From contig CAJINV010000012.1 of NCBI GenBank assembly GCA_905178155.1, forward strand, positions 1,988,492-2,052,491: a stretch of DNA of 64,000 nucleotides. The letters run 5' to 3'. The notes under the pieces are model-generated. The model was given only the letters and a program-made list of their open reading frames with translations. It did no database searches and was not told where the DNA came from. Made by a program: the position numbers and the translations under genes. The stretch comes from Amoebophrya sp. A120. Its lineage: Eukaryota > Protista > Dinoflagellata. Position 1 is the stretch's first letter. Every line of letters begins with the position of its first letter. Shown here one piece after another: positions 1 to 22,100 of this stretch.

Positions 1-1784
1 ACCTGCAGCTCCGCGTCGGTCAACTTCCTGGAAGAAAGTTCCGCTTTCTCCTTTGCCTCTTCGTATTTCTGCGATAATAAATCGGACTTTCGCATCAACT
101 CCTGTATTCGATCCTCCGCCGCTTCTTGATCTTGAGACACGGAAGTTTTGAGGTGCTGGTACTCGGTATTTAATTCGGTGAATTTTCCCTCCAGCGCTTG
201 TTTCTTCTGCGTCAGCTCCGCAATCTCCTGCTCTGCCTCGTGTCTCTTCTGTGTCGCGTCTTGCTCGGCAGATGCGAGCTTCTGCTGCGAAGCAGTAACT
301 TCTTTCTCGGCGGTCTGCAGCTTGTCCTCGAGAGACTTGGCTTTTTCGGCAACCACAGTGTGATCGCGTTCGAGGGCTTCCTTTGTTTGTGAGGATGAAA
401 TTTGATGTCTTCTTCACTTGCAGTTTTTCCGAAGATTCAAGCAGAAAATCGATGGTGCTCCTGGTTGTGCAGATCAAATCGCAAAAATGTCATGCGGATA
501 AAAAACTACGAGTACTACGAACAGCTGGTTCAAATTTTATCTTGAATGGAAATGGATCTTCTAGAACTGTGAAACTAATACCCTCCGGTCCACCTCTTCC
601 CGCCTTCTACTCTCCGCTTCCAGCACCTCCTGGTCCTTCGCCCCAAGTTTCGCATCCACACTCTCTTTCTCTTCCCTGAGCTGTTGGTTTTCCAGCCTGA
701 TTGCGTTCAAGTTCTTTTCATACGACCCTTCGAGTTCTTTCTGCTTGTCCTTCTCGAACCCCACCTTTTTCCGCAGCTCCTCCCGCTCCTGCTTCACTTG
801 TTTCAGCTCAACGCTATGCATTGCAAAAATGTCTGGGTCTGAAAAGTTCGAACCTGTAATGCGTGTGTCGCATGTCTGAAAAATTTGTATTGCATAAGCA
901 GCAACTCAAGCGCCACACTTTCGTCATGCAAAAGCGCAGTTTGTAATGCCAATGCGTTCTGCGCATGACAAAGCGTTTGAAAAATTTGTCATGCTGCGCT
1001 GCACTTAAAAGCACAGTCAATCGTAACCATTCAGCATCACAAGTTTCCAGACCCAGACTTTTTTGCAATGCATAAACGCTGTTGTCGTCCAATTCGTCCA
1101 GCCTTTTCTTCACTTTCTCCAACTCAATCTCCCGCATCCGCAGCTGGTTCACCGTGTCCGCCAAGTCCGTCGAGGTTTCGCTGTGTTCCGCCCGTAATTT
1201 CTCCAACTGCTCTTCTGCGTCTTTCTGTGCGGTCAAGTGCACCGTGAGCCTTGTATTCAGCGTTTCTTTCTCGCTTTGCATCTGTTTCCGTTCCTCCACC
1301 AGCTGCTTGATTTCCTCTTGCAAGACGTCGACTTGCTGCAGCGATTGGCTTTGCCGCGATTTCGCATGGGAAATTTCGTCATCCCTCTCCGCGTTGGCGA
1401 GCTTCGTGCGCTCAATTTCATCCTCGAAAGCCTGCTTCTCGCCCTGACAATGTTGACACGTGTTTGTGATGCAGATGCTGACAACTCATCACACACATCT
1501 GGTACTAGTAACACACAAGAACATGATGTGCGACGCGACATTTACGCGGCAAAAAGAGTACAACAAGACGTCCTACAGTACAACGTACGTACCTTCAACC
1601 TCGTGATCGCCCCTTCCAACTCCGATATCTTTGCCAGCTGCGCATCCAGTTTGTCTTCCAGGTTTTTCAGTTTCAAATCTTTCGAGGCGACCGTATCTCG
1701 GAGCTTGGCGACTTCGCGGTTGCGCTTGATGAGCTCGCCCTCGAGCTCTTCCAGGTTCCCCAAAGCAGCGGAGGAGGAAGACAT
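1..1784 (-). CDS. Coiled-coil protein, multi-exon, 3' end runs off the window
   Basis: Exons read as E/K/L-rich heptads (MSSSSAALGNLEELEGELIKRNREVAKLRD...; QEEIKQLVEERKQMQSEK...). GT-AG intron at about 1444-1591. Removing introner 815-1074 plus one direct repeat restores the frame (DDNS-VELK). Confidence 0.75.
815..1074. mobile_element. Introner element, family B
   Basis: TIR TATGCATTGCAAAAATGTCTGGGTCTG / CAGACCCAGACTTTTTTGCAATGCATA; 5-bp direct repeat AACGC. Confidence 0.9.
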
Positions 1785-2437
1785 GCTGTGATGTTTCAAT
1801 CAGACGAGGCGGCGTTGCGAAAACAGGATGTCGTAGCTCTTGCCCCAGCCAGCGCTGAATCTGAGATTTGTACGGGTACACAACGCGATGTACCCGGTAC
1901 CAGCGGCCTTGATGTTCTTGCCTGGGAGATGCAGCTAGTCCCGCTTGTTGTCCATCTGGGCTTGCTTGCGTGATGCTGATGCTACCTGGAGCTGTGGCGG
2001 TACGTTGCCGCAGGCATCATGATTCTGCTAGTCACTACTAGTTGTAAAGTCATGAGCAATTCACTCAATATGCCAGTAGCGGGGCAGAGGCACGTGCAAC
2101 AAGAAGTCGCCGCGCTCTAAAACAAAATCACTCAGCAGAAGGAGAAGGAACTTTATCTTGTCTTCTTCTCTCCTACTTATCCACTCCAAGAGCCAGCAGA
2201 GACCGGCTTCCCACCAGAAGCAAGCTGCTACTTCTCATAAACGTCATCATACAGATACCGAACATCGGATGTTTCTCGATGAGCATAGAGGGAAAAGGCC
2301 CCTGCAAAGAATTGCTTGTCTTGTTGGTCCACCAACATCATGGCCGACGATTGCACTCAATCATGGCTCGGGCGCGAAACTACATTGCAAAAAAATAATG
2401 TTGGGCTTATGGTCCTGCTCCTGCTCGTCGTCGTCCT

Positions 2438-2899
2438 TATGAATGGACAACTTAGAAAAGTAGACCATAAACGACCCTTTGAAATCAAGAAAACAGCTCT
2501 TCGCAAAAAATGACTTTTGATCCGAACTTGTGATTTTTGCATTTGAAAGTTGTAATTTTTCGAGCTGCGATTTTTGCATTTCCGTTTTTCTTTATAAGTA
2601 TTTCGATCCGAAATGTTAATAGTTCAAACCGAAACATCGCATACTTCAAGCCGAGAAACAACTTCTTTTAAAGGGAGAAACTTCAATACCGATGAGGAGG
2701 AACCTTCAATACACAACTACCCGACCTTCGATAAACAACTAACCCGACTTCTTTTTCCTTCAACTTCCACCTTCAATTCCTTCAAGATCACAAGAGCTTC
2801 TTGATCAAAAAACCACACAAAACCACAAAAACTGAGCTCCTCTATGACGACCGGAAATTTCCAAAAGTTGTGGTTTACCGTAGAGCCACAACTTTTCGC
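2438..2899 (+). repeat. Left terminal inverted repeat of the giant element
   Basis: Starts TATGAATGGACAACTTAGAAAAGTAGACC and is the reverse complement of 17906-18367 (2 mismatches seen). Internal repeats GATTTTTGCATTT and CCACAACTTTT; 20-bp tandem duplication at the inner edge (about 2880-2919). Confidence 0.95.
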
Positions 2900-4016
2900 G
2901 TAGAGCCACAACTTTTCGCCATTCTTCATTCCTTTGCGAGACCGACACGACTTTTGCGGGCGCGCATCCGCTTGTTCGATTCAGTGGTTGAATTTCAACT
3001 ATTCAAAATAGTGCTGATGCATTTTCATAATGGAGATGCTCAGATGGCACAAGTTCAGCTCCGCAGCTTGTGCAGCGTCAAATCAAAGTTTTTGGCAATC
3101 AGCGCGCTTCCCGCATCTTCTCCTCAGTGGCGCGACAAAGTGGCTCAGTTCTAGAGAAGAGGTTCTTGCGTCTCAAGAAAAAAGGGCAAAGCACGTTGAT
3201 CGTCAGTAATACGAGACGCCCGAAGAGATGGGCGAAAGTGACAGTAGCATAAGCCACCCATAACGTAGATACAGAGGTATCTACAGGGTGGAAGAAGTGA
3301 AAGATGTAGTTTTTTTGCCTAATGCTGACAGTGCGCAAGCACTGCCAACATCAAGCGAAGAGACGGTGATGCTGCTGGTCGATGTCGTTTGTAGTGCGAA
3401 ACAAGAAAGGCAGCTCAACAAAGAGAGATCACTAGAAATTTATTTCTAAACAGAAAAATATCTTGGATAGTTTATTTTGTAAATATATAGTCTGCGATGC
3501 AATAAACTGGAACATCGCAAACGGTAGAGATGAGGATGTTTTTTTTTCTAAAACAAAAAATAATGAAAGTTAAATCATTAACATTGAAAACGAACTGTAG
3601 CACAAGTAAAAACTGAAGATCCACCTCTACCCGAAGCTTGCTAGTGAAGCTGAAGCACATTGACTCTGGCTCCTCCAACTCGCTCTCGCAAGTGTAAACA
3701 TGCTGACACTTCCCCGCTCTCGATAGCACTAGTACTCGCCAACGAAAGCAATACACCTACGTCTCCTCTTGGGTGGAGCACTTACGTCAGCTTCTACTTC
3801 TACTTCATAAATTGCTAGTAGTAAAAGCAACAGGAAACACCCGCACAGCCACAGATGTGATGCTGATACAGGTGCATGTTGCCAGTGACGACGCCAATAC
3901 TTTCAGTACGGAGGCGACTACAGACGTTGCAACGAAATTTTCGTGGTGACATAGCCAGAGCGAAAGTGAAAATTGCTAGTCTTATAGCCGATCCTTCCCG
4001 AGTTCAACTTAGTTCA

Positions 4017-7000
4017 TCACATCTTGAAGAAATCAAAACCACCGAAGTCATCCTCATCCATAGACGGACCGCGCGAGCGCTTCCCAGACTCCTCTTCGGC
4101 GGGACTCATCGGTCGCTTTGGGTTTTTCTTTGGGCGCCCCTTCGCCTTGGCCTTCGCGTTCGCACCCGAGGACGACGAAGACGAGGACCCACCTTCCTGT
4201 TCGTTGGGGTTCATCAGGTTCTTCTTGTGAAACGGGTTGCTCTCCCCCTCACCGAACGGGAACATGAAGAAGGTCATCCCGTCACCCAGGTCATCCTTCA
4301 CCTTGGCGTCCTCCATGCCCACGAGCTTGTCGTACTCGGTAGTCTGCATCTTCGTGATCGCGTCCTGTTCCGCTTTGGTGGGCGGCTTGTTTTTAGAGTT
4401 CAAGGCCTTCTTGCCGAAGTTCTCGCCCAGGTGGCTGTCGTCGGAGAACGTGTTCTTGTCCAGCGAGCAGAAGGGGTACTTGTAGTACAAGTCAAACGTG
4501 TTTCCGAAGGCGATCTTGCGCGGCTTGAAGATGATGGTCTGATCGACGTAGGCCTTGTTCGGGCGGAACTCCAACACCATGTTGTCCATCTTCAACACGA
4601 AGTCCATGTTCACATCCTCGGCGTCAACGTCCTTGCGCTTCACCAGCTTCGCCGGGACGCGGCACGGCAAGATGAAGGCCTTCTGCGTGTCCGTGGAGCC
4701 GAGGACCCACTCGTTGTCCTTATAAAAAGCGTGGCCGCTCATCAAGTCCTCGCGCTGGTAGTGCTGCTTGTCGAGGTGCGCGATCTCATGCGGGACCTGA
4801 AAAAAATTACATTGTTGGTCAGTGTTTAAAGTTTATGCGTAGGCTTACGCTTTTTACATTACATTCATTGCAGGGCGCTTGCGCATTGAGTTTGCAATAA
4901 CAGTTGATGCTGGCTATGACAATGAATATGACATGAGTATATCTACTGTCTATACCGGAAGCGCGCATATTACATGAAAATGACAATCGCTCTTCATCTA
5001 TACCGGAAACGTCTTCGCCATCGCGCGGACGGTCAAGCACTTGTGCTCCTGGGCCATCTTGATCTCTTTCTCCAACCGCTCGCACTCGGACTTCAGGCGC
5101 ATCTTGCGCTTCTTCATCTTCTCACCCTGCTCATTGCGGGCCAGCATCGCCTTCTCCTCCAGCATCAGGACCGCGTGCTCGTCCGTCTTCTTCCGCTCTT
5201 TGAACCGCGCCTTTTCGTCGATGACACTTTGCGCGATCGCGCGGCGGGTCTCGGTCTTCCAGGACCGCTCGTACGCCGCGAAGGCCGCCCGCAAATCCTG
5301 CATCTCTTTCTTCAGCTTCGCAACAGCGGGGGAAACACCGGGACCGGTGATGACGGCCTGCGCGTCGTTCAACACCGCCAGCGGTCCCTGATCGCCGCAG
5401 CTCAGGATCACGCGCTGCCCGGTCGCCAGATTCACGGCCGGCTCTGGTGTTGTTTTCATTTTAGAAATAAGACTGCAGTTTGTGTCGGTCACTGTCGCTC
5501 ATGATCATGCAAAGGCCAGCGCCAATTTATGATGCTAATCTGCGATGCCTGGAACTCACAGTAAATGCATGCAGATCGGACGCAAAGAAAAAATAGAGCA
5601 CGGGTCTCATGCTCCACCATGTGCAAGGAGGTTTGTCCACACTTATCCATATTGAGGAGCTTCAGGTCGAGTTTGATGACCTGGCGCACTTCCTTCAGCC
5701 GGGCCTCTTCTTTTTTCTTCGCCGCGATGTCCTGGGCGCCGAACAACCACACATCACCGGAATTGAACTTGCCCTCACGCGGGGTCTTAGCAGTGACCAG
5801 CTGTTTGACGTCGGTGATGGTCTGATTTGAGTAATTGTGTTTTGTATAAACGAGTGGATGTGGAAGTGGATGCGGAAATGGAAAAGGAAGTGGTAAAGGA
5901 AATCTAAAACACAATGGACGCTGCATATGAAACCAAGCACGAAGGAGCGTGTAATACTGGCTCTGGTAATGATGCAGATCACAGATGCTATCCCTATATT
6001 TATACTTACGCATGCAGATGTACATGCACAGCAAGAACGATAAGAAAAACGCACCTCGCAGCTCACGCCCTCCTCTTCGAAATGGAAGTCTTTGGCGGCG
6101 TTCCGCGCGGTCTCGGTGATTACCCGCAGAATCAGCTGATTCCAGAAGTCGGTCGCCAGCTTGTCCTTGTGGCAGCTCAAGCGGAAGCAGTTCTGCAGGT
6201 TCATGAGCTGCCCCTTGTTGACGGTGATCCTATTCTCCCCCAAGGTCAACTCGAAGTAGGCGCTGAGGGCGAGGTCCTTCACGGTCGAGTGTTGCCATTT
6301 GATCCCGGAGTCGAGCACTCTCGACCTGTTGTTTGATTTATTCGATTTCGTTTTCAATTTCATTTGCAGTGACGGACTTATTTTCACCTTCACTTTCACT
6401 TTCACTTTCACAACAGCGACAATAGAAATAAAATCATAAGTGATCGAATACCGACTCTGACGCTTTTTGTCGATACTGAAAATACACATACAGAGCATGC
6501 TTTTAGAAAATTGCTTTTGTGTTAGAAAGACTTAGTGTTTGCGTTTAGGTCCAGCGTCAACACATGCAGATGTAGATTGGTCACAGCGTGTCCATCTCTT
6601 TGTGAGTGCGGATCGAAGCTTGGCACTCTCATACATATTTTCTTCCACTGCACCGCGACACTAGCTGCACCGAATAAAAAAGCGCGACGGATCAAATCAC
6701 ATAGACATCTGGACACGGAGACTGAGATGGTGATAAAGTGGCGCGCGTTTATCTAGAAAACAATAACGACATCAAAATACCGCAACTGCGAGGGAAAGTT
6801 CTCTTCGTCACCCTCCTCCTGCTTGCGCCGGACGACATCCGCCCAGTTACAGCTCACCGCTCCCCATTCCCGCCCGCACTGCAAGTAAATTTCGATCTCG
6901 GTCTTCATGCTACCGACGGCCGAGCACTTGCTCTGTGGTGTTGTTTTGAGTTGGAGTCTCAGGTATATGCATCACGAGATTGCTCTTGCAGTTACAGGCG

Positions 7001-10000
7001 GCGAACGTGGAAATTTTCGAACTAAATATGGCACGGATAGAAACTCCATGCTCCTCGAAGTTCAAATGTACACACTGACACGCGACAAAAAGCGCAATTA
7101 AGTTTTGTTTTACCTTGAAGAACTTGAGCTCGTCCATGTCGGAGTCCGGATTGTCTTTTTTGAACTGCAAGTAGGCGGAATGTATCTGAGAAGTTTTTCG
7201 ATGCGTTGTTCAAACGTGACGCTTTCGCATTCCTTATCATTGGCAATAATTGAAAATACTACAGGCACGAGCACACGCATTGTCGCAATGCCAGCCCGTG
7301 GCACGAAGCCCCGCTTTTACGCCGCGATGAAGCGTAAGCTCGCACTGGCACAGCAGCGGAAGATAAAGAAGCCAAATGCAGCTCGCACTATGGCGCAGCA
7401 ACCAGCTGCGCGAAAGGCGATGAAGACAATGAAGAAAGGCGCGAAGGCCCGGCAGATCGGAAAACCGAAACCGCAGCAGCCTGCGCAGAAGACTCACGTT
7501 GTGGATTCAGAAGAGAGAAGCGGAAGTCTTACCATGCAGGACTGCATTCGCTTCGGGCTTCATTTGCAAACTAGTGCGGGCAGAAAATTGGAAGCGGGAA
7601 AACAATATCGCCTCGCGTGGTCAATCGCGTGCCTCACCGGCAGACGCGGTATGGACGTCCGGTGTTTGACCATGGACGACGTACGCGGCGAAGAGATTAG
7701 AATAGGAAATACAAAGACTGCGATCGCGCAAGGAGGGCGCGGCAAGCTAAAATGGGTTCCCATTAAGCCCAGCAAGCAGACGGCAGCTTTTTTGAAGGAG
7801 CGAAGGCGCGCACTACAGGACAAAGGGCTAAGTGGGGAAGATCGCGTGTTTGACTTTAACTACGAAGCCTTTGAAAAAAAAATCCGCGCTGCGCGCGCGA
7901 CGTTCAAGTGCGAAGGGCAGCGGAGCTGCCCCCCGACGCTGATTACCAGCCACACCCCAAGGCGCAGCCTTATTACGCATCTGCACAAGCAGGGGACGGC
8001 GCTTAGCACCATAATGCAAATCTCCGGGCACGCGTGTTTAAGCACTCTCATGCACTATCTAGAACGCGACTACTCATATCAGATCGAAGCCGCTGAGAAA
8101 GTCAAACTCTAGATACAAGAGCCCTCTTGTCGCTTGTTGAAAGAGATGAAGCTGCCACGACGACAATGCGAACAGTAGTACATAGGTGCGCCTCCAGTTG
8201 CGATCTCAGTCTTATTTTTGCGACACATGAATGAAAATTGAAAAGCAGGAAATAAACTATACTTCCGGGTAGACACTCAGTATTTTTTCTGTCATTGTCG
8301 TAGACAATGGAGAATTATTCTCATTTTGTAATCTGAGAAAAGTTCTCAGTAGCGGCTCGTACTCGCGGATCTTCTCGGAGAGGACGGTGAGCCTGATGGT
8401 AGTTTTAGATGAAAACATTACAAGAGGCAAGAATGATAACGGTTTGGATTTGGAGCGAAGTGGGAATTGAATTCGCCGATGAGTGGCCATTACTGAGAGG
8501 TAATAACTCCTGACGCTACATGAACATGTACATCTTCACGAACATAAATTATGAGCACAAAATGAGGCAGCAAAAACAAAAAGTACGTCAATCCCAAGCG
8601 TTCGTAAATGCCCGGCCCACCTTCTTCCAAGAGGAGTTGCTTTGCGGCGAGGGTGGAGTGCCATCCGCTGATGACCTCGAAGGCCGGCTCGACGTTCTCG
8701 TCGTCACTGCTTGTTCCGACCAGGTTGTTGATGCGGCTCGGCTTGATCAGCAACTTTTCCTTTTGTCCGGCGGCTTTAATCTCGTCTTTGTCCGACAACG
8801 GAATCACGACGATATCTGAAGAGGGCGGGGTTGTTGATGGTGATTCCGATTTCGATTTGCTGGCAGAACTACCAACTTTTTTATCATCACTATTACGGCG
8901 GAACGCGGGGAGCGTCATAACGAACTCCCTTAATTTTTGGTGCGCTGCCGCCCGGCGGCGCTTCTTCTGGGTCTGTTTTTCCAGCACCGCTGCGACCTCG
9001 ATATCGCTAGGTGAGAAGTCAACGTCACTGCTCGCGGGGCTGTTTTCGCAACTACCAGAAGCGGAGTCGTCCGACTCGCATGGTGGTGTCGCACTATGCG
9101 AGCCTTCGAAGGCGGGCCACGAGAGACGGCCGTTCTGTTGCTCGCTGAGGTGCTGGAGTGCCATCCTTGTATGGTGGCCGGACAATATGTGGGGCATCTG
9201 GTCAAGCCACACCAGCGGCATCGGGGACTGGTACACACTAGATAACTGCTCATCAGCCCACCCGAAGATGAGGCAGCGCGGCGGGGTAGTGTACACTTTT
9301 TGAAACAAAGCCGATTTGTCGGGGCGGGCAACGATGTTGCTTCGTGGCCTTTTACCGCCCGAAATCATCATGCTCTTGAGGAAACAAACATGCTTTTCCC
9401 GGGCCCGACGGCGACTATCTAACCGGAAATCAAGGAACCCGGGCCACGACAAGGGGTCGCGGATGTCGAAACCGACGGGGAATGGGTCATCGGGTGTACG
9501 GCCTAATCTGAACAGGGCCCGCTCAATCTTGCCGCAAATGTACCAACTCCAATGCTCACCAAAGATGCCTATGGGTGAGAAATTGGGGGCAATTTTGTAC
9601 TTCAGACTATGTCGCTGGCGCAAAATATGGTGGAAGGCGCGGGTAGTTCGAGGGGTACATCTACTGCTATTCGTGGTTGTATTGTGAAAAAAAAGTAATA
9701 TATACCCTTGACTTTGACGTAGTCGCCGCTGGTCATTGCGTCCAGGAGGGTCAAGCAGTGCTGCCAGGAACGGAGGGGATTCCGGCGGGACTCCCCCAGC
9801 TGGCGGAGCGTGGCTTGCAGCAAAATCGCGCCGGCTTTGAACTGCGGAGAGGTGAATCTCATCACGAAGTCCGAGAAGTCCTTCTTCATCATTCCCCCGG
9901 CGTGCCAGCAAGTCATGACCTGCTCCACTTCTTTGGCAGTCGGTAAACCCGCCTTCATCTCCTTGCACAAACCGATGACGGACGTCCACGACACGTTGGC

Positions 10001-10186
10001 ACCGACGGGCAAGACCTGATCGAACTGCGAGTCCGGGTCCAACTTTCCCAACCGCGCGACTTCTTCTTCCTCCTTCAACATCTCCAACAACGAGATCTCT
10101 TTTTCCTTTTCCTTATCGCCGGCGCCGGAAAGCGAGGACTTAGGTCCCGCTGAAGTAGACACTTCAGCGACGGGCTTTTTGCTCAT
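4017..10186 (-). CDS. Transposon cargo gene, multi-exon, with ParB/Srx-like motifs; may be one gene or two
   Basis: Phase-compatible GT-AG chain of exons ending at about 8586, then about 8392-8263, 7185-7114, 6878-6781, 6325-6067, 5821-about 5600, about 5470-5003 and about 4796-4017. Motifs PHILSGHHTRMAL and FEVISGWHSTLAAKQL...LQNENNSPLSTTMTEK. The 5' exon (MSKKPVAE, 10186) junction is uncertain. Confidence 0.6.
7288..8112 (+). CDS. Tyrosine recombinase (phage integrase family catalytic domain) with basic N-terminal tail
   Basis: Full catalytic set in order: LTGRRGMDV (R), NTKT (K), HTPRR (HxxR), ISGH (H), LMHYL (Y). Intronless. ATG at 7288 inside ORF 7105-8112. Confidence 0.9.
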   Translation: MPARGTKPRFYAAMKRKLALAQQRKIKKPNAARTMAQQPAARKAMKTMKKGAKARQIGKPKPQQPAQKTHVVDSEERSGSLTMQDCIRFGLHLQTSAGRKLEAGKQYRLAWSIACLTGRRGMDVRCLTMDDVRGEEIRIGNTKTAIAQGGRGKLKWVPIKPSKQTAAFLKERRRALQDKGLSGEDRVFDFNYEAFEKKIRAARATFKCEGQRSCPPTLITSHTPRRSLITHLHKQGTALSTIMQISGHACLSTLMHYLERDYSYQIEAAEKVKL

Positions 10187-10328
10187 CTTTACACGCTCTG
10201 CACGGAAAAAACCACGCCGCGTGGACAAGATCTACACTAACTCAGACTGATTATCGCTCGCACTGGACTGCGTTTTTGATTGAAAATAAAGTAGTTTTGT
10301 GGAAAAGTAGTGCATTTCCAGAACGTTC

Positions 10329-10481
10329 CAAAAGTGGCCAGATCTCAGAACGAGACTACTTTAATTAAAAATTAATTAATTCTTGTGCTCTGAGATTTTT
10401 TGCATGATATTTTCAGACAAATCAATGATTTTTATTTATTTTTAATTAAAATAATCGCGGTCTGAGATTTGGCCAATTTTG
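10329..10481. repeat. Central AT-rich imperfect inverted repeat (candidate recombination or binding site)
   Basis: CAAAAGTGGCCAGATCTCAGAACGAGACTACTTTAATTAAAAAT ... ATTTTTAATTAAAATAATCGCGGTCTGAGATTTGGCCAATTTTG; arms about 50 bp, spacer about 50 bp. Confidence 0.8.
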
Positions 10482-11769
10482 CATCAACATAAAAATTGCA
10501 TTACTTCAGTCATTTTTGATCTCGAACATGGTTTGGCTCGTGTTGAAACCGACTCCGTTCTCTCCTCATCAGACCGACAAAACGTGCTTGAACAATGTCC
10601 AAACCGACCCCATTTGTGCATGATCTCGCTGCGCGCATGCAGTAATTACGTCTGCTCTCATTCAAATTTCGATCTCGCCGCGCAGCTCGAAGCTCGTACT
10701 TCATACTTCAATTTGTCGCAGAAACAAGCAACGACCCTCGTCCTTTCATCGTATTATCGGCGGGATCATGAGCACCAATACGGGGGTAGAGTGGCAATTT
10801 TTGGAATCTGTGATGCTGCGACCGTTCATTTTACGACCATGGTCTCTCCTTCTCCATATGAACTTCATGAGACAAAAGCGCGAAGATTTGACAAGATGAA
10901 GGAGGTTTCTATGCGGGTAGAAGAGTATCACGTGGTCCATTTTTGCAGATCTTTTTTGTTGGACGAAGATAATCGAGTGTGTTGCTGGAGGAAGATTTGC
11001 TTGCTTCGGGAACTATAGTTGCTGTGCAAGTAGTGCGCGAGTCTTGGATTTTACATACATGATATACCGCGCGCTCTATTTCTATTTCCCTCATTTTTGC
11101 AGCTTCAATGCTTCCCTTAGTTGCGCAAAGCAGCCAGGAGAAGACATCAGCCATATCAAAGTCGGAGAATCATCGCGAGCAGCATTGAACTATTTGGGGC
11201 TGGGTACAAACGCAGTTGGGGCGAGTTTTTTCATAACATTGGCTTTTTTTATCGACGAATGCTGGGCACCATTGCACACACAGGGAGCATATGTAGCAGC
11301 AGATCACTGTCATACTTCTTTTCATTACAAACACAAATACAGAAGGGAGCAACGTCTTCTCTTGGGTACAGCATATGATAATTTTGCCTGCATCAGGCTG
11401 GAGTGCGGGTACTACGTACATGAGCAGGCGATGAATAACGACGGCGCGGGCTAACGGATACGGAACCGAAAGCACTAGTCGTCGACTTCTCGACTAGATT
11501 TCAAAAGACAAGTGCGTCTGATGCTGATTGTGGTGGAAGTGCGCACGCAAGTGCATATCTTTATCTATAATTATACCGCACAAATGAGGAAGCCAAGTGA
11601 TCGCACTGTGTCTGTACCTGCGGGCGGAAGCGCATTTGCAACCACAACCACGTCGCAGATACATGTACGCGCGAATTCGAATTGGACATGAACATGTGAA
11701 ATACAAATACAAAGGGAAACCCAAATACAAATCGGTAGTTACATTACATGCTTTGATTTCTGTACAGGT

Positions 11770-14700
11770 TCACTTGAAACATGTTTTCGCAGATAGAGCA
11801 GACGCTGCTCCACTGCGAAAGAAACGACTACGACGAAACGGCGTCGTCTGCTCGAGTACAAAGTCCTCGCGTTTCATCTCCTTGGATGTTTCCTCCGCCT
11901 CTTCATCATCAGAAGAGTCCGCTGCTAGCCAGTGCTGGGCGTCCAAGTCCTTGGCGTCGTCCATGTACTGGCTTATCACTTTGTAACTTTCAGCCTCCAT
12001 CTCATCCGTTACCATCGGAGTGTCGCCCTGAGTCTTCATGTACTTGAAGACGTGGCGGACGATGTTGTGGCGCGCCAGTTTTACAGACTCCTGATCCAGC
12101 AGCCGGCTCAAAGTTGTTTTCCCGAACGCCTTTCTCGCGTTGGTTTCCGTGTTGGTCCCCGACGCGACTCCACCCTTCAACCCGGAGTCCGACTGTGAAT
12201 CCAACGGCGCTGCGAGTGCGACCGTCTCGCGCCCTCCGTTCTTGTCGGGTACCGCGCCGCCTTTTGCTTTGCGCATTCCCAACGGTAAAGACGCGGCCCA
12301 GGTTGCCGCCTCCGGCCTGTTATTTTAGATTCATGCACGTTTGAATTTTGCAGCGGAGGAGTTCGAGGACGAGGAGGTGGCTGTACTCGAAACAAACCAG
12401 CTCTCATTTTCAAGCGCAGGCCAAGGGCCAAGCGCGAATCATACTAGCACATGCAAACACAAACAAGAAGACAAACTCAAAGGCAAAGAAGTATTTGCAT
12501 ACTAGGAAGTAAGTTGACTGCGTAGCAGTCTGTACTGCCTAGCTCTCGCCAAGTACCTGAATACGAAGTATGCCTCCCGGATTTTTTCTTCCAGCTGCTT
12601 CTCCGGGACGGCAATATGTTGGCTCACCGTTTTCCAAGCGACGTCCCTTGTACTCCGCTCCGCCTTCTTACTGTCCGGACCTTGGACGATTGCCTCGTCG
12701 GTCCGCGCTTTCTCCTTGTTCGCCACGCCGATCTTCGCGAGGGAGATCTTCTGGCTGACCCAGTTTGACGCTCGTGTCGCGAGCACCGGCCCGGAGCACA
12801 GCACGTCCTGCTTCGGGTCTGGGTGGTCGTGCCACCGTATCGCATCGACGTCGGAGATCTTGAAGTCCATCACGAGGCGCTGTCGCGATGGCGCCGGATC
12901 CAGCGCCCACTGCGAAACCGTGCGGCACCGCGTGAAGGGGTGACACACGTACCACTCCGTCATACTCTCGCGCGGAATCTTCTTCTTTACTTCTTCCTCC
13001 CGAATCGCGGTCATCTGTTTATCAAAATCCGAAGAGAGGACCCTGCGCACTTCTAGCACGTGCCCCTTGTGATCCCCCTCCTGGGACACTACGAAGCACG
13101 GCTTTGCCGCATGGTTACCGTCGACCAGGTCCTGCTGGTTTAAGACCGTTTTCTCCGGCAACCGCATGACCAGGTGCCCCAGCTTGCAGATGTTGTTCTC
13201 GAAAAGCGTTGCTTTCTTTCCCGACTTCCAGTGCGGCACACCAGCCGAGAATCCCGGTATCAAGTTGCGCAGAAGTGGCGGAAGAACGAGGTCGCTGTTG
13301 GGCGGGATCGGCCCGCAAAAGATCTTCTGCGCGACCTTGGTTTCGATGTGTTCCGGAAAAGCCGGGTGCTGCTCGAGGTAGTTTTCAAACTCCGTGCACA
13401 AGCGGCCCAACCACGGATGAAGATACTCCTGATCACGGCCCCACAGCTTCTCCATCTCGGTCGGCTGGTATGCTCTCGCCGCGGTAAAACGCTTGTCAAA
13501 CTTTTCCCGGTGCTGGTCTTGGTACATTTTCACAAGCGGATACTCCAGCCCCTCCCCCCGGTTTCTCCTGACCCGCAAACCGTTCCGCTCTGCTTTTATA
13601 TTGGGAGCGTTGTGATGTTCGAATGTTTTCGAGTTGTGCAGACTCTCGGTGTACTGTGTCTGCGGTTGCAAACCCGGCATCAGACACGAGACTATTTCCC
13701 ACAAAAGCGCCGCTGGAGACACTGTTCCGTCCTCCATGACGTGCGTAGCAACAGCATCTTCTTCCGCGACCAAAACAAGAGCGTCGTGACACATCTCCAG
13801 CAGGAAGTCCAAAAAATCATCGCGGTTGTCCGGCTCGGTTTGCAGAAGAGCTTGTGCGATATAGCGCCGCAGCTTCTTGTTGAGCAACATGGTAAGAAGG
13901 TAGGGGAAGTTGTAAAGTTGTATCTCTCGCGACGGCAAGCGAGTCATCGTTTTCATGAACACCGTGAATTCCTGCAAGCAGTCGGGCTTCCTGCATAACA
14001 GGTTCTTCAGCTTCGTCATGATGTCCTCCACGGCCAGCGGCCTGGGGCGGTGTGCGCACATGTCTTCCAGCTTCGTGTTCGACAGCACAGCAGTTGGGTC
14101 GCCCTCGACGCGGAGGGACTGTCTGTGCACTTCGCGGACCGACGTAGCGGCGGACGCAACCGCAACCCAGAAGTCGGGATTACGGGAGTGGAGTCGCGCC
14201 TTCGCGACTGTTGCTCTGTTGGTCTCATCCGCCCGGTCTTCGGGGTTCAACGTGTTGACGCAGGCCACCAACTTTTCCTTGTTTTCTAAAAGTGCCTCGA
14301 GGCACGGCAGCAGCGTCATCCACCGGTGGTCCACCGCTTCGGGCACCTTGATGCCTGCGTCTTGGAGCCACCACTTGTTTGCCCGCTGGATGGCCTTTAC
14401 TCCCTCTACCATTTTGGGGTAGAATACCTCCTGCACTTGTATCACCTCCTTGGTGAGAAGGTGGCACTGATGCAACTGGCAAACCAACTGCACGACGAAG
14501 AACTCGAGGCACTTGACCTTGGACCCCCTCGCCTCCTGTTCCTTCCTCCTCTTCCGCAAGACCTGGCACATGCGGCGCAGCCGACGCATGGCAGACAGGA
14601 TGTCCGCCCCCGCATCGGATGCGATCGCCAGGATGATGATCGGGTCCGTTTCCCATGCTGCTGTTGTCGCTCCTGGTAACATCACACACAACCCCAGAAG

Positions 14701-16655
14701 TGCGTAGATGTCTGCCAACACAGAGTAGTAGCCACCGTCGTGGCTCGACGCCAACGGGATGACGTGCTTGATGTGTAACTTTCCTGTCGTCGGATTTGCG
14801 CGTATCACGAGGGCGTCCAGCGTGAGCGAGTGGCTCTGCTTGTATGGCGTGCTGTCCGGCGCAACGCGCACCACGATGGTGGGCCTGCGGATTTTGCTTT
14901 TCCGAGCTATCACAACCGGGAACGGATTCGCACTGGAAGAGCTGGCCGCGACTTCGACCTTCTTGAGAAACGCCTCCCTCGGCGCCTCCCGGGTTAGCGC
15001 CAGGTCGTCGCGCCCTTCGAAAGAAAGCGCAACTGGACCGCTTTGGTTCCGGTACACGTCGATATCTGAAATGTTCATTGGCAAATAATTCTAGATGAGC
15101 ACGAGACTGCAATAAAAATAACGAACGATAAGACACACCACAGAGGAAAATAATGCAAACTGCAATCAGCACGGCAGTGCGAGATGTAAAGTGTGGAGGT
15201 CGTCGTAGCTCAAAGTCAGACTGCAACTCTCGTCCTAAATCTGTCATGCTCAATTTCCTGCGTATCTAGTGGGAAAAAATACCCGCGATAGCTTCCACAT
15301 CCTGAAGATCGTGCATCCAGTAGACCGCCCGCAGTTCGTCCTCCTTGCGCTCGAGAAACTTCCGGTGCGCATCCTTCCAACCTGCTGCTGCGAGAGTAAT
15401 GGTCTCCCTTTGTTGCTTCGCATCCTCGAACTTTTGGTCGTTGTACAGCACGAGCTGTGCCCGCCGCTTCTGTGTATCCGGAACCTGTTTTATGGTGCTG
15501 CTGGCGAGCGACCCGGACTTCCAGTCATACCCGATCCCTGCCTTCATGATGACTGGATCACCAGATAGTAACTGGCCCGGCAGTGCTTCTCTGTGCAAAC
15601 CCATAAGCCGCGACTTGTGGTCGTATCGCTCCTCGACCTGGAACAGGTGCTGCATCAGCTCGATCTGGTAGCTGTAGTTGTTTTTTGTTTTTCTTTATCT
15701 TTGACATTGACTTTGTCATTGCATATAACTAGGCATCAACCTAAACGCGAGCAGCCGTATACTGCATGCAAAACAAAACTGGGAAGAAGTTGGAATCAAA
15801 ATAAGAATAAGATCGAGACAATCTGAAACGACGTCAAAAAAGGAGACGCAACTTCTGCACCTTCTTCGCCGTCGTCGCGCTGCTCGAAGCCATGCAAACA
15901 GCGACGTAGTCGCGCTTTTCTTCGACCGTGTTGAATTTGTCGAAAACGGCGAAGTCAACCTCCGCCCATTCTTTTCGGATGTCATGCACCTGTTGGGGTT
16001 TTGGAGAAAAGCGTTTGCGTTAGCATTTCCATTTCCATTCCCAAATACAAAGTCTTCGCTCTTCCACATGTTCACGTTGGTCTTTGTTCTACAGTGCTTC
16101 ATGTTCATCTTTGTCCCACATAAGCATCAAGCTTCTGTTTTCATCTTCACTTGAAGCCGAGGATCAAATAAAAACACTCAAACGAGAAACCTTCCGCCTC
16201 TTTGGGTTAAGGGCCGCCTCTGCATCTTCGTCTTGTTGCGCCCGATGCGCCTCCCCCTTTTCCATCGCAAGGCATTTCGCAAACTTTTCCGGAATCATTT
16301 CAAACCGCTTCTGAAGTTCGTCCTCCGCCAGCGCGACCAGCAGCTGCTTGTCCGGGTGTCGAGTAGCAGCAACACCGTGGAGCCGCTTGCACGCTTTCGA
16401 CAGACTCTTGGCGTTCAGCTCTGTCCGCACAAACCCACGCGCTCCTTTCGCGGCGTTCTGTTTTTCAGCCGTCGCATCGCTCGCAGACGTCGATGCGCCG
16501 CTAGCTATCAAAGAATCAAACGCGTCGACGAGGTTCTGCATCGATGTTGCCACTGCGACGTCATGCGAGAAGTCACGCCATGGTGACTGGCCACGCGTCG
16601 GGCGGGCTAATGGTCCGCCCGGTTCCACGGACTTTTTGTCTTTGCCGCGATTCAT
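11770..16655 (-). CDS. hAT-superfamily DDE transposase, multi-exon (core exon in ORF 12502-15084)
   Basis: hAT-like motifs in order: SLTLD (D1), IASDAGAD (D2), CQLH (CxxH), HRWMTL (RW), PQTQYTESLHNS (E). Phase-compatible GT-AG junction into the 11770-12282 exon. Upstream exons (15266-15655, about 15830-16010, 16190-16655) are inferred. Confidence 0.8.
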
Positions 16656-17905
16656 CTTGTGGCGCGACAATGCGTTCGAATTAGGGCGAAAACCAGAGCA
16701 ATCTTCTACACATAGATAGGGACAAGAATGAAAGCCAGCTACATCTACACGCACATTGCTAATAGACTACTGCCATGCGCTTGCGCACTATGTGTGCGCA
16801 TGTACGTGTTTTGAATCTCCCCGAGATTCATCACGCGGCTCCCATGCGCTCTGTTTATCACGCACTCCGTGGCTCATATACGCGCGCTTTCACACTCAGC
16901 TCATTCCTCGCGTGCATCATCGGCGTCACGTGCTGACTGCCAATCGCGCTCCTCATGTATTCGCTTGTTGCATATCTACTTCTCGCTATGAGTATCCGGC
17001 GCTCTCTCGATATCATGGCCGTCGGTTTCACTCTGCGGCTGCTAGGAAAACAAAGCGAAATGGAAATCAGAATCAGTAGAAATCAGAACCGAACCGATGG
17101 TCGGCTGTATCAAAGTGCGCAGCTCACTCATCCGCGCAAACCCGTCGCACAACAACATCACTCAACGCCCTCTACTTCCACACTCACAATAATACCAATA
17201 AACAAAGACCGAGACAGTGCGACCGTGATCGAGATCGTGATCGACACGACATAGATACTACTGACAGACCACATCCTGATCCTCAGTGTGATGTCTGCCT
17301 CAGCTTCAGCTGGAGCTCAACCGTCAGAATCAATTTCGTTTTGAAGTGCGAGTCAGTTCGTCAGCTTTCTTTCACTTTCGCACTCTCTTCATCACCTGCT
17401 GTCGAAGATGGTGCCGCCGTTTTGCTTGGTTCCGATGGGCTGCACGAAGGGAAAGACCAGCACAATGCAACGGCTGAGGAGATGCGTCGCCACGTGATTC
17501 GACCTGCTTGCACTTCGGGCATCCGCCTCGTCAGAGAACCTGAGAAGTGTTGTAGTTTTGTGTGATTTTATTTTTGCATCATCACTGCAAACACAGTTGC
17601 AGGAGTGGAAGCGGTTGCGGTAGCGGTAACATTACTATCACTTTATGTTGTTGAAGTTGATGTTGTAGATTGTATTTGCATTAGTAGATGTAGACGTTGA
17701 TAGAGAATGATGACGAAGCTGAAGAGATGCAAACTCATATAAAACAAAAACAACGCAGCACCTTCTTTTCGCTTTTTTCTTCTCCGGTTTCGTTTGTTTC
17801 ATTTCATTTTCACTTCCGGCACAGAACCGAAAAGCACTTCCTGGATCAAAAGGATGACTTGCAGCAGCTACTTCTCGTAGTGAATGATAAAAAAGGCGGA
17901 TCTTG

Positions 17906-18367
17906 GCGAAAAGTTGTGGCTCTACGGTAAACCACAACTTTTGGAAATTTCCGGTCGTCATAGAGGAGCTCGGTTTTTGTGGTTTTGTGTGGTTTTTTGA
18001 TCAAGAAGCTCTTGTGATCTTGAAGGAATTGAAGGCGGAAGCTGAAGGAAAAAGAAGTCGGGTTAGTTGTTTATCGAAGGTCGGGTAGTTGTGTATTGAA
18101 GGTTCCTCCTCATCGGTATTGAAGTTTCTCCCTTTAAAAGAAGTTGTTTCTCGGCTTGAAGTATGCGATGTTTCGGTTTGAACTATTAACATTTCGGATC
18201 GAAATACTTATAAAGAAAAACGGAAATGCAAAAATCGCAGCTCGAAAAATTACAACTTTCAAATGCAAAAATCACAAGTTCGGATCAAAAGTCATTTTTT
18301 GCGAAGAGCTGTTTTCTTGATTTCAAAGGGTCGTTTATGGTCTACTTTTCTAAGTTGTCCATTCATA
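17906..18367 (-). repeat. Right terminal inverted repeat of the giant element
   Basis: Ends ...CTAAGTTGTCCATTCATA, immediately followed by TSD GTCGTCCT. Confidence 0.95.
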
Positions 18368-18568
18368 GTCGTCCTGGCACGTAAATATTAAAAACATCAG
18401 CAGAAGATATGACGTTCTGCTCGAATCATTTCTACAACAGCTCCTTCCAAGGCAATTGTTCAATATCGACGCAACTACCGACTGTCATTTTTGCTAGCGG
18501 TACCGCCTCCTTGTATGCTGGCTTGACAACAAATAAAACGTGACTCTTGAAATCAAAAGCACCTACTT

Positions 18569-19150: not shown

Positions 19151-22100
19151 TTTGCTTTTTGCTTCGTTGGGTTTCCTTTTGCTTTTTTATTTTGGAGTCG
19201 AAAGTGTGTTCTGCACAAAGTGTTGAGGAGCGACAATGCGTCGCTATCTCGCTTTGTAAGTGACGCTCACTGTGCTAAGCAATTTTCGCAGTTTTTGGTC
19301 TCTCTGATGTTAACTGCACGGCGGGCCGCGTCACAAGAGCTTGTTCTACGGAACGTCTATTCTCATTTCGGTTTGGGCTCTCCACGCAAATATTCTTGTC
19401 GAAGCAGGTGGAAGTTGCCGCGGGTATGGGGCGAGCGTCATCTTCGCGGTGGCCCAGTTTGGGTTTGTAGAACAATGACAAGCCAAGTTGAAACGGAAAC
19501 ACGCACTTCAATCAACGAAAACGCACACGCTTGCTTCGGGGCAATCACCGATACATCGTGTTGCCGACACTCACACTTCTGCTGCATGGCCGTCAAACCC
19601 TCGCTCCCCGACAAGACCGACAATGACAGGGACATGCCCAAACCAATCAAAACGACAAGAAAAGTAGAGGTAGAACAGGAAAAGCACAAGGCAGATACAG
19701 ACACCTCGGTCGGGGCACGAAATTCCAAATTCGACGCAGCCGCCCCGCGCGGAGGAGCCAGTGCTTACCAGCACACAAAGGGAGACCATTCTTGTCGCGG
19801 AGGCAGGGACGAACGGCAAAGGCGTTTCTTCACCTCGTCCTGCCAAGCCCGCCGGCTCTCTTCGGCGTGTGCGGCGGGCCGCCCCGTTGAAAGTGAGGCT
19901 GCAAATAAGAAAGGGTCCGCGCCCTAAGGCCAAAATAACAGGAAGGACCCGGGCCAAGTCCGCGCCCCGAACCGGTGCGCGCCCCTTGATGGGAAACCGC
20001 GGCGCCGGGCGAAATTCCCCAAGAGACAGAGAGAACAAACACAGACCCCGGGGCGCACCTGCGGGCCAATGCCAGCGCGCCAAGGGAGCACATCCATGCA
20101 GGCTGGCAGCCAGGCAGCCGGCGCGCGGCAGGCCGGGCCCGGGCGGGGGGGCGGCGGGCCGGTCGGGCGGACGCGGCGCAGACGGCCGGCAAGCGCGCAG
20201 CTTCTGCGCCGAAATTAGTGGGGGGCCCTTCCTTCGTCCTCTGCTTCGGCGCTTAATTGGCGGACGGAGCTGGCAGCTTCGGCCAAAGCGGCGCCGCCGC
20301 CGTTTCCGCGGATGTTGTAAGGGCAACACCCGCGGAAAGAAAGCTGGGGCACCGGGCCCCAAGCCCAAGCCCTCGTAGCCGATATGGGCCCGCCATGAGA
20401 CAGAAGGGCGCGGGCGCCAAACGCTCGCGGGCGGTGGCGGCCAATCGGCGGAATGGGCAACGTCCTGCGTCAAAGTTGTTTGTCGCACTCTGATGATACC
20501 GCAGCGCGGTCGCCACTGGTATGGTCGAGGGGGGCGCGAGTTGGTTGCCGAAAAGGCGCCACGTTCACGATTTGCGTGCGCCAAAGACTCCGGGCCAACC
20601 TTTGCCCGTGTGTGTCACTGCAGCGGGCGACGTCGGGGCGCCTTTGAATCGCCGGCATTGCAAGCCAGCCTGCCGGCCGGCTCCGCCGGCGGATCTGAGG
20701 AGCCCGCGCGGGGCCTCCGCGGCCTCGGCATTCCGCCTGGCAAGCAGCGCGGGCCCGGGCCGAATGGCCCGGCGAAGCGGGGCACTTGGCGCCCCCCTAT
20801 GGGTAAAACGCTCCCGCGCCAGCGCCATCGCCAAAACCCCCCGGCTCGGCCGTCCACAAATTGCCGACGGCAAACACAACGGCCGAACGGCCGACGGCGC
20901 CGCTCGGATACGGCAAGCCCTCGAGTCCTGCGGCGAAATTACGGGCGGCGCTTTTCAATTCGCTCCCATTGACAAAGAAACGCCCCAAGCTGCAAAGCTA
21001 CACCTGAATGACTAGCACACACCCACCTCGAGTACGAGTACATACTGGCTAGAAGAGAACACGGCTCGTTTTCTGAGGCCACAAATGCGCCGTTTCTTTT
21101 GAGATCGCCTCTGGTGTAAAACAACATTTATCTTCAGCGAGCACATTGTACAAGAACGCACGTCTAATCTGTCACCAGCTGTGGGCACACATCTCGGGTC
21201 GTTTGCAAATTCTAGGGAGATAATTGTACAAATACACACTACTCTTGGTTTCTTGTGAGACTTCTGTAAACGATCAAATAGTAAGCTCAAGTTGTCAAAT
21301 TGTAGCTCAGTAAACTGGTCGAATCACCGTCGGTCTGAGGACCGGCGGAGATTGATCGTACGGAAACGGAAACTGTCACACAAAAGTTTTCAAATAACAT
21401 ATGGGAGGTTTCGTTTGATTTCTAATATTTGCACCGTCGTGCGCTTATCGTGCAATAATCGAAAGAAACATTGGTGTGAAGAATATTCGTCTTGCTATTG
21501 TTCAAGCTAGGAGAGTCGGAATTCTGATTCTGCCGTCGTTGCGCAACGATTTCTTTCGCTGGTCACGTGACTACCGCAGCCATGCTTTAGACGAAGAACT
21601 GCTGGCTTCTACTTCTCACTGCATCTAGTTTTAAAGGTTGCCGGTAGTCCTGTACTTTTCGTTTTTGTTAAGACCTTTACCTTATTTTTCAGCTTAGTTA
21701 GTATCTCTAATTATTCTTCATTACTTTGGAGGCCGTTTAATTTTGTCAGTACAAACTTTCTGCTTTTAGTCCACATACATTTTGATGAAACCCGTTTGCT
21801 AAGATAGTGCTTCTGGAGAAGCAACAACTTGAAGCCTCTGCCGCGTATCTGTTTTTTAGTAATCTGCTAGAGTGTGTATTGTTCGTAATCGTATCAAGAG
21901 CGGTAGAAATAGAATTGAAAGCGATAGCATGAAACTACTACTAGCTCACGAAATTCAAATAGAAGCTCAGGCTCAACACTTCGCCAGCATCGAGTATTTT
22001 TCCTACGGTTGGTTCTGTTTTGATTTGGTACAACTAGCTCATCGAAACTACTGATGATCGATGTTATTTTGCGATCATCATGCGGGTACAACGAATTTCT

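Follow-up and report, generated by a model that had tools for sequence, protein, structure and literature searches.

What a tyrosine recombinase (YR) does inside a transposon that probably encodes its own transposase is the question raised by a locus of the dinoflagellate Amoebophrya sp. A120. Within a stretch of 64,000 nucleotides (contig CAJINV010000012.1 of assembly GCA_905178155.1, positions 1,988,492 to 2,052,491; hereafter the window, whose own positions are used throughout), a 15.9-kb element bounded by long terminal inverted repeats (TIRs) contains a gene for a small YR, the only antisense gene of the element, all other genes of which follow the host strand. A preliminary description had placed this YR gene within an intron of a large orphan gene (the cargo gene) and had suggested that the enzyme may need a partner protein for site recognition. 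The reading preferred here, which we rate at about an even chance, is that the YR recombines two identical 34-bp sites in the TIRs, either inverting the interior of the element or resolving joined copies, and that its gene is nested in a cargo intron.

An intact open reading frame (ORF) of 274 aa is present at 7288-8112 on the plus strand and shadows no minus-strand frame. Its coding score of 17.9 was the highest among the 42 plus-strand ORFs of the window that begin with ATG and encode at least 100 aa, and the runner-up that did not shadow a minus-strand open frame scored 8.4, in agreement with the earlier view that the recombinase is the sole clear plus-strand gene. Pfam analysis matched the protein to Phage_integrase with E = 1.5e-8, a match that passes the curated cut-off; no other family was matched at E ≤ 1. 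The catalytic set is complete, comprising six residues (R120, K143, H222, R225 and H248, which form the pentad, and the nucleophile Y257). An AlphaFold model of the protein had predicted local distance difference test (pLDDT) values mostly between 70 and 93 across residues 81-270, and its closest structural match was the catalytic domain of HP1 integrase (E = 1.7e-6), while structural matches to Cre were ~15% identical. The 77 residues ahead of the conserved motif include 22 Lys or Arg and 14 Ala, and pLDDT was below 50 for residues 1-20 and 22-73, indicating a disordered tail; a Lys/Arg/Ala-rich tail therefore does stand in the place of the core-binding domain, as first described. The tail may resemble the N-termini of dinoflagellate nucleoproteins.

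The gene had also been described as having no introns, and this holds for the ORF itself; however, the strongest plus-strand acceptor, at 7264, lies 23 nt ahead of the ATG and may serve a spliced leader or an intron in the 5' untranslated region (UTR). Spliced leaders are reported on at least 37.8% of A120 transcripts (PMC7789003). The YR frame stays open upstream to an ATG at 7180, and the added stretch scores as non-coding. An upstream exon that would provide a core-binding domain was sought and rejected: the best-scoring upstream donor (6963) adds no in-frame Met, and the long in-frame alternatives use weak donors, nearly all of them overlapping cargo exons.

Full-length YRs normally carry a core-binding domain (PMC8138268), and relatives of the present enzyme were compared in this respect. 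In a profile search, 7 representatives reached E ≤ 1e-30, 12 reached E ≤ 1e-10 and 1,311 reached E ≤ 0.001, and 5 of 404 candidates were 53-58% identical to the YR over the catalytic region. Gene models of Amoebophrya sp. AT5.2, described as diverse paralogs, made up 9 of the 15 relatives looked up, and one cluster of relatives also contains an MMETSP transcript. Phage_integrase was matched by all 15 aligned members, a core-binding family by none of them, and a transcript-derived member likewise had no core-binding domain; its lack is thus a trait of the family. The Crypton-associated domains GCR1_C and DUF3504 were found in none of the 15. Of the 16 family proteins measured, 6 have a basic tail that is 50 aa or longer and consists of Lys and Arg to 24% or more, whereas the tail was 12 aa or shorter in another 6, some of which may be truncated models, and two members (P0012 and P0160) have a Lys-rich stretch behind the first helix rather than at the N-terminus. 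By its placement, the Lys-rich stretch looks like a position-independent module, and because several relatives have no tail or have it elsewhere in the protein, it is not a folded replacement for the core-binding domain. A quick tree was built from 60 rows picked by hand; its long branches make placement unsure. In it the family formed a group of its own, with 13 short catalytic-only YRs on the same side of the tree. Bacterial YRs that consist of the catalytic domain only, such as this group of 183-214 aa (one named from Crocosphaera) and FimB and FimE, resemble the present enzyme in beginning at the catalytic domain, but they are distant (profile E ~1e-7 to 1e-9) and have no long basic tail.

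The element around the YR gene is delimited by its TIRs and by an 8-bp target-site duplication (Table 1), which lies in a low-complexity GTC repeat. In contigs from a DNA sequencing run (X1), the interior of the element forms a single contig of 15,066 bp whose depth (42) is that of the host, and depth over the outer repeat is about three times as high (124). The last exon of a minus-strand gene in the element probably encodes a hAT-like DDE transposase: along its 854-aa product, the motifs D, D, CxxH, RW and E follow one another as in the hAT consensus, and 9 of its 10 named Atlas matches belong to one family or clan (those listed being hAT-type or DUF, all below 0.9). The 8-bp duplication of the element agrees with a trait of the hAT superfamily. 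Homologs of this exon were found neither in Pfam and the PDB nor in a database search of 7,993 candidates, and its structure model had a pLDDT of 36. The hAT superfamily has short TIRs of 5-27 bp (PMC12506042), whereas those here are ~460 bp.

The two identical 34-bp sites lie at the inner ends of the TIRs in inverted orientation, and identity between the repeats stops 3 bp beyond them. Their geometry fits the published rule for YR sites (arms of 11-13 bp and a spacer of 6-8 bp; PMC3212892), which makes them candidate substrates of the enzyme. A 13+8+13 site of such quality arose in 8 of 2000 shuffles of the TIR. Furthermore, the site recurs at two loci: two other X1 contigs (13,177 and 656 bp) match the segment 1085-12450 only at 2861-2899, with 4-5 differences, and in both the match sits close to a contig end, as it would if other elements had their inner repeat boundary there. 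Two other candidates for site matches were discarded. Three matches to the site pattern in one viral contig (L004-L006) were attributed to chance, given their position in repeated units with Rep-like ORFs and the lack of similarity to the window, and a palindrome at 8333 has 7-bp arms and is among 17 of this kind listed for the element.

The position of the YR gene was examined through the splice sites around it. A GT donor at 8262 and an AG acceptor at 7186 exist on the minus strand and join in phase 0, and the resulting nine-exon GT-AG chain from 10186 to 4017 is open for 1,171 aa with one terminal stop, which upholds the in-frame junction and the phase-compatible downstream exons reported initially. 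Frame compatibility alone is weak evidence, since the frame is kept by 13 of the 120 GT/AG pairs that bracket the YR. In matrices trained on the other seven introns of the same gene model, which is our own, the donor ranked first of 69 GT sites and the acceptor first of 65 AG sites, whereas under leave-one-out the donors of the training introns ranked 3-43 and their acceptors 1-17; because both sites are top-ranked, beyond most training sites, the evidence for nesting is stronger than that from frame alone. The 72-nt exon 7185-7114 outscored all 1,689 stop-free background windows in codon bias. Without the YR ORF, intron 3 would be 252 nt long, and the other cargo introns are 137-455 nt. Altogether, the splice ranks, the codon bias of exon 4 and the size of the flanks argue for the nested antisense arrangement, which we consider probable, although the junction itself is predicted from sequence only.

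Alternatively, the minus-strand gene could stop at 8257 and lie tail-to-tail with the YR gene, and a separate gene could start head-to-head with it from an ATG at 7137. An in-frame stop does follow directly after the donor at 8262, exon 4 does contain an in-frame ATG, and exon 3 is weakly coding (log-likelihood ratio -4.4 for the whole exon and -9.2, non-coding, for its second half). Moreover, no homolog connects the two halves of the cargo protein; none of the last exon was found among 588 candidates (restricted to 455-2000 aa), and parts of the protein gave no family match in a Pfam scan and nothing usable for a cargo domain in Atlas. However, the 16 codons ahead of this ATG are coding-like (top 1.3% of background) and begin exactly at the best acceptor, and the GTATAG donor used by intron 3 recurs at 5003 between two strongly coding exons. 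Together with the first rank of both splice sites, these data make two separate genes unlikely.

The stop after the donor and the poor score of exon 3 weigh against the nested gene, and several further observations weigh against the preferred reading as a whole. No RNA data set was listed as matching 4000-10300. Raw RNA runs X3-X5 contained 0 reads on 1-17880, the host gene included, and contigs of three further sets (X6, X7 and X8, from one sample and presumed to be RNA) did not cover 3738-12450, which contains the cargo and YR genes, at a host depth of only ~2-7. The codon bias of the YR gene itself is weak. No relative of the YR was placed in a genomic context (0 of 186 and 2 of 56 metagenomic stretches and 1 of 100 and 0 of 31 viral stretches were confirmed); three loci from these scans (L001-L003) encode ordinary integrases of 324-418 aa that have one motif in common. 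With regard to the sites, the host part of the window holds two more palindromes with 13-bp arms, words resembling the half-site are found repeatedly in the TIR and may be motifs bound by the transposase, and a third TIR copy, found in an X1 contig and also in an X7 contig, shares the outer 346 bp but diverges at 2783, before the 34-bp site. An inverted copy of the element was not seen in contigs, which are unable to phase orientation. It is hard to explain how an enzyme free of a core-binding domain would read 13-bp arms, and the hAT-like transposase is a lead only.

Other readings assign the YR a different role. It could be a small cassette able to move by itself (Crypton-like or a YR introner), which entered or made the cargo intron, with the TIR palindromes serving the transposase. 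This would suit an intronless ORF that is the sole antisense gene of the element, its GC content at third codon positions (0.63, against 0.73 in the transposase exon), the nine diverse paralog models in AT5.2, a 9-bp direct repeat around the gene (minus strand, 8339-8331 and 7192-7184) and 11 occurrences of CTGAGA within 6.7-10.5 kb against 1.2 expected. However, excising the DNA between the 9-bp repeats broke the cargo frame in both reconstructions tried, and a cassette with these boundaries was rejected, as its removal leaves no open empty site. The CTGAGA motif was chosen after the fact and is equally enriched in other windows; the longer word TCTGAGA is not enriched across the whole window (9 found, 10.2 expected). 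In addition, the palindrome at 8333 is commonplace in the element and the YR family has no Crypton domains, so that a cassette of this kind appears improbable.

The suggestion that the YR depends on an element-encoded partner, either the cargo protein or another ORF, acting in trans is compatible with recombination at the TIR sites. It would account for a family without any core-binding domain where full-length YRs normally have one, and ciliate YR elements also carry hypothetical ORFs. However, no family resembling a core-binding domain was found in 11 other minus-strand ORF pieces scanned, or in 6 pieces covered by a further scan, short catalytic-only YRs exist on their own, and the tail is missing or moved in several relatives; no support for the suggestion was obtained, and we regard it as somewhat doubtful. 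Isolated catalytic domains of YRs can behave as weak topoisomerases. The YR might accordingly be a sequence-tolerant nicking or relaxing enzyme, or else a disused captured passenger, and no YR transcript was seen among the thinly covered putative-RNA contigs. The open frame with its intact catalytic set, the conservation of the catalytic region in five relatives and the matching candidate sites within the same element all argue against this, and we hold it to be very unlikely.

TIR elements of ciliates offer the nearest comparison. Tec1/Tec2 of Euplotes and Sardine and Thon of Paramecium likewise reside in alveolates, and they have long TIRs with internal palindromes (425-700 bp, compared with the 462-bp block here) and encode a DDE transposase, a YR and hypothetical ORFs; here, the YR is evident and the transposase probable. 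The ciliate YR has been proposed to resolve transposition intermediates, and Paramecium elements bearing a YR have long palindromic TIRs whereas those without one have short plain TIRs (PMC3464196, with PMC5405496 and PMC3212892 for the former point). The ciliate elements differ, however, in being IS630/Tc1-mariner elements, Sardine being ~6.7 kb and Tec being excised at TA, whereas the present element is 15.9 kb, has an 8-bp duplication, a probable hAT-like transposase and intron-split genes, and carries its YR nested in antisense. Because these elements use IS630/Tc1 transposases, and no Tc1 Pfam match was found in the element proteins scanned, it is not a member of their group; the best reading, by analogy, is that it works as they do with a different type of transposase, the YR being an accessory invertase or resolvase. 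MarCry-1_FO also has a YR inside a TIR element moved by a DDE transposase but has 16-bp TIRs, a TA duplication and a CryptonF-type YR (YR plus GCR1_C) instead of long TIRs, an 8-bp duplication and a catalytic-only YR. Two classes did not fit. Cryptons have no TIRs and are flanked by 4-6-bp direct repeats, and their GCR1_C and DUF3504 domains are absent from the 15 family members; a Starship was excluded since the YR is internal rather than the initial gene at the 5' edge, and matches Phage_integrase only and not the DUF3435 of a captain.

The sites themselves are closest in form to those of plasmid and phage systems. Both Flp/FRT of the yeast 2-micron plasmid and Cre/loxP of phage P1 use a 13+8+13 site with an asymmetric spacer, and FRT is embedded in long inverted repeats, bears an additional third arm in tandem and serves to flip the DNA enclosed. 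The present element shares with Flp/FRT the 13+8+13 sites in long inverted repeats and a third tandem arm at the left; Flp and Cre differ in their plasmid or phage context and in an N-terminal clamp domain, which is absent from the YR here. Judging from the repeats and the duplication, the DDE protein would move the element, and the YR would recombine the 34-bp sites in its TIRs. Given the inverted orientation of the sites, a recombination event confined to a single copy would turn around ~15 kb of the interior. If the sites belong to two copies, arranged in tandem or on a circle, the outcome would be resolution, or amplification such as Flp permits for the 2-micron plasmid. Reading of the arms would fall to the catalytic domain, and a non-specific grip on DNA or nuclear import would come from the basic tail; helper proteins of the host or the element are possible but not indicated. 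An antisense YR gene placed in an intron would come at no cost to the cargo protein, and inversion would, more speculatively, swap the genes that lie in the direction of host transcription.

Table 1. Features of the element and of its genes, in window positions.
Feature	Position	Strand	Remarks
TIR element	2438-18367		15,930 bp; TAT...ATA termini; interior single-copy in DNA run X1
Left terminal inverted repeat	2438-2899	+	462-bp block, 3 mismatches against the right repeat; extended to 2916 by the tool
Right terminal inverted repeat	17906-18367	-	mirror of left repeat
8-bp target-site duplication	2430-2437 = 18368-18375	+	from the window; both ends supported by X1 DNA contigs
loxP/FRT-shaped site, candidate YR core	2863-2896	+	13+8+13; arms 12/13 complementary, asymmetric spacer; inner end of left repeat
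Identical 34-bp site, inverted orientation	17909-17942	-	inner end of right repeat
Third tandem half-site	2904-2916	+	left end only
Tyrosine recombinase gene	7288-8112	+	274 aa; basic disordered tail (~1-77) and catalytic domain, no core-binding domain
Candidate spliced-leader or 5'-UTR splice site	7247-7264	+	putative; acceptor rank 1/103
Cargo gene, predicted	4017-10186	-	9 exons, 1,171 aa, orphan; borders of exons 7 and 8 have alternatives
Cargo exons 1-5	10186-9706, 9568-8587, 8392-8263, 7185-7114, 6932-6781	-	GT-AG chain
Cargo exons 6-9	6325-6055, 5821-5643, 5472-5004, 4796-4017	-	GT-AG chain
Cargo intron 3, predicted	7186-8262	-	1,077 nt, GT-AG; non-coding flanks of 150 and 102 nt around the YR ORF
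Palindrome, AT-rich, imperfect	10329-10481		153 bp; upstream of cargo gene; hairpin-forming, z = -8.1
Last exon, probable hAT-like DDE transposase	12502-15066	-	854 aa; Atlas feature scores 0.80-0.89; motifs
Probable upstream transposase exons	16655-16200, 15694-15276	-	predicted

Other features of the element were also recorded. The palindrome upstream of the cargo gene contains three TCTGAGA words and could be a promoter, an origin or a small insertion. A further orphan ORF (11770-12324, minus strand, ~180 aa) has no family match. A capsid, a packaging ATPase and a protein-primed polymerase, the set known from Polintons and Polinton-like viruses, were not found in the scanned protein pieces, among which orphans remain, and Rfam gave 0 matches. 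The third TIR copy, together with the two contigs that match the region of the 34-bp site, suggests that related large elements form a family. At position 2534 and its mirror in the right repeat the window reads T, whereas the X1 read contig representing about three copies reads C, possibly an error of assembly polishing. A 185-nt X6 contig within the interior (3244-3427) suggests that the element was present in the cells of the RNA sample.

The element may also be removed from RNA. In contigs of X6 (966 nt) and X7 (201 nt), the left host flank passes directly into the right one at 2435/18371, with the element and 5 nt removed, and this join was not found in DNA run X1. A canonical host splice is seen in X6 and X8, which indicates that the sets contain mRNA of this strain, while the joined contig appears to retain upstream host sequence unspliced and the join may lie within the 3' UTR. 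The join leaves 3 nt beyond the empty site predicted from the 8-bp duplication; with a duplication of this length the join is not the empty site, and splicing is favoured, the best-fitting minus-strand ends being GA..AG or TA..AC. If instead the duplication was of 5 bp and one later change occurred, the join would be the empty site, and an excision footprint is also possible. Small host introner candidates in the window (815-1074 and 23652-62228; 126-506 bp) have TAT...ATA ends, with a 5-bp duplication in 22 of 37, and removal of the introner and 5 nt (modulo 3) best preserved the frame in 17 of the 21 small introners tested; one 506-bp candidate, probably a merge of two elements, was left out of the frame test. 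A120 introners (PMC7789003) thus resemble the element in their TAT-starting inverted ends and in the removal of the element plus 5 nt; they differ from it in being short and non-coding and in the 5-bp duplications of the window candidates. Elsewhere in the window, a GC-rich island (19800-21000, with 69% in 20001-21000) contains a palindrome with 13-bp arms at 20304 and has no Rfam match, and a loop-free palindrome of 118 bp lies at 49384-49501.

Other eukaryotic TIR transposons with a YR were found in the present analysis only in ciliates and one fungus, and all of these have mariner-type transposases. In the literature search, apart from the supplements of PMC12130899 and PMC7789003, no element combining hAT and a YR was found, nor any giant transposon with hAT, a YR and cargo, nor any account of a hAT transposase in Amoebophrya. 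In the papers cited on such elements the role of the YR is a matter of conjecture, and this locus offers an enzyme together with a precise candidate substrate. If confirmed, a catalytic-only YR of ~200 residues that acts on a site of 34 bp in the nucleus of a eukaryote would be much smaller than Cre, and if the join in RNA is splicing, a 15.9-kb intron would be removable by the non-canonical introner route. The element may further represent a class of giant autonomous introners, hAT-like transposons of 15.9 kb that are spliced out whole by the host and carry a minimal Flp-like invertase flipping the interior between the TIR sites, a view that we hold to be quite unlikely. Inversion would then bring either the transposase and cargo or the recombinase into line with host transcription. 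Farhat et al. 2021 (PMC7789003) report no transposase in A120 despite tens of thousands of TAT-ended introners, a point to which the element is also relevant; giant autonomous introners, if they exist, would supply the transposase reported missing for these introners of Amoebophrya.

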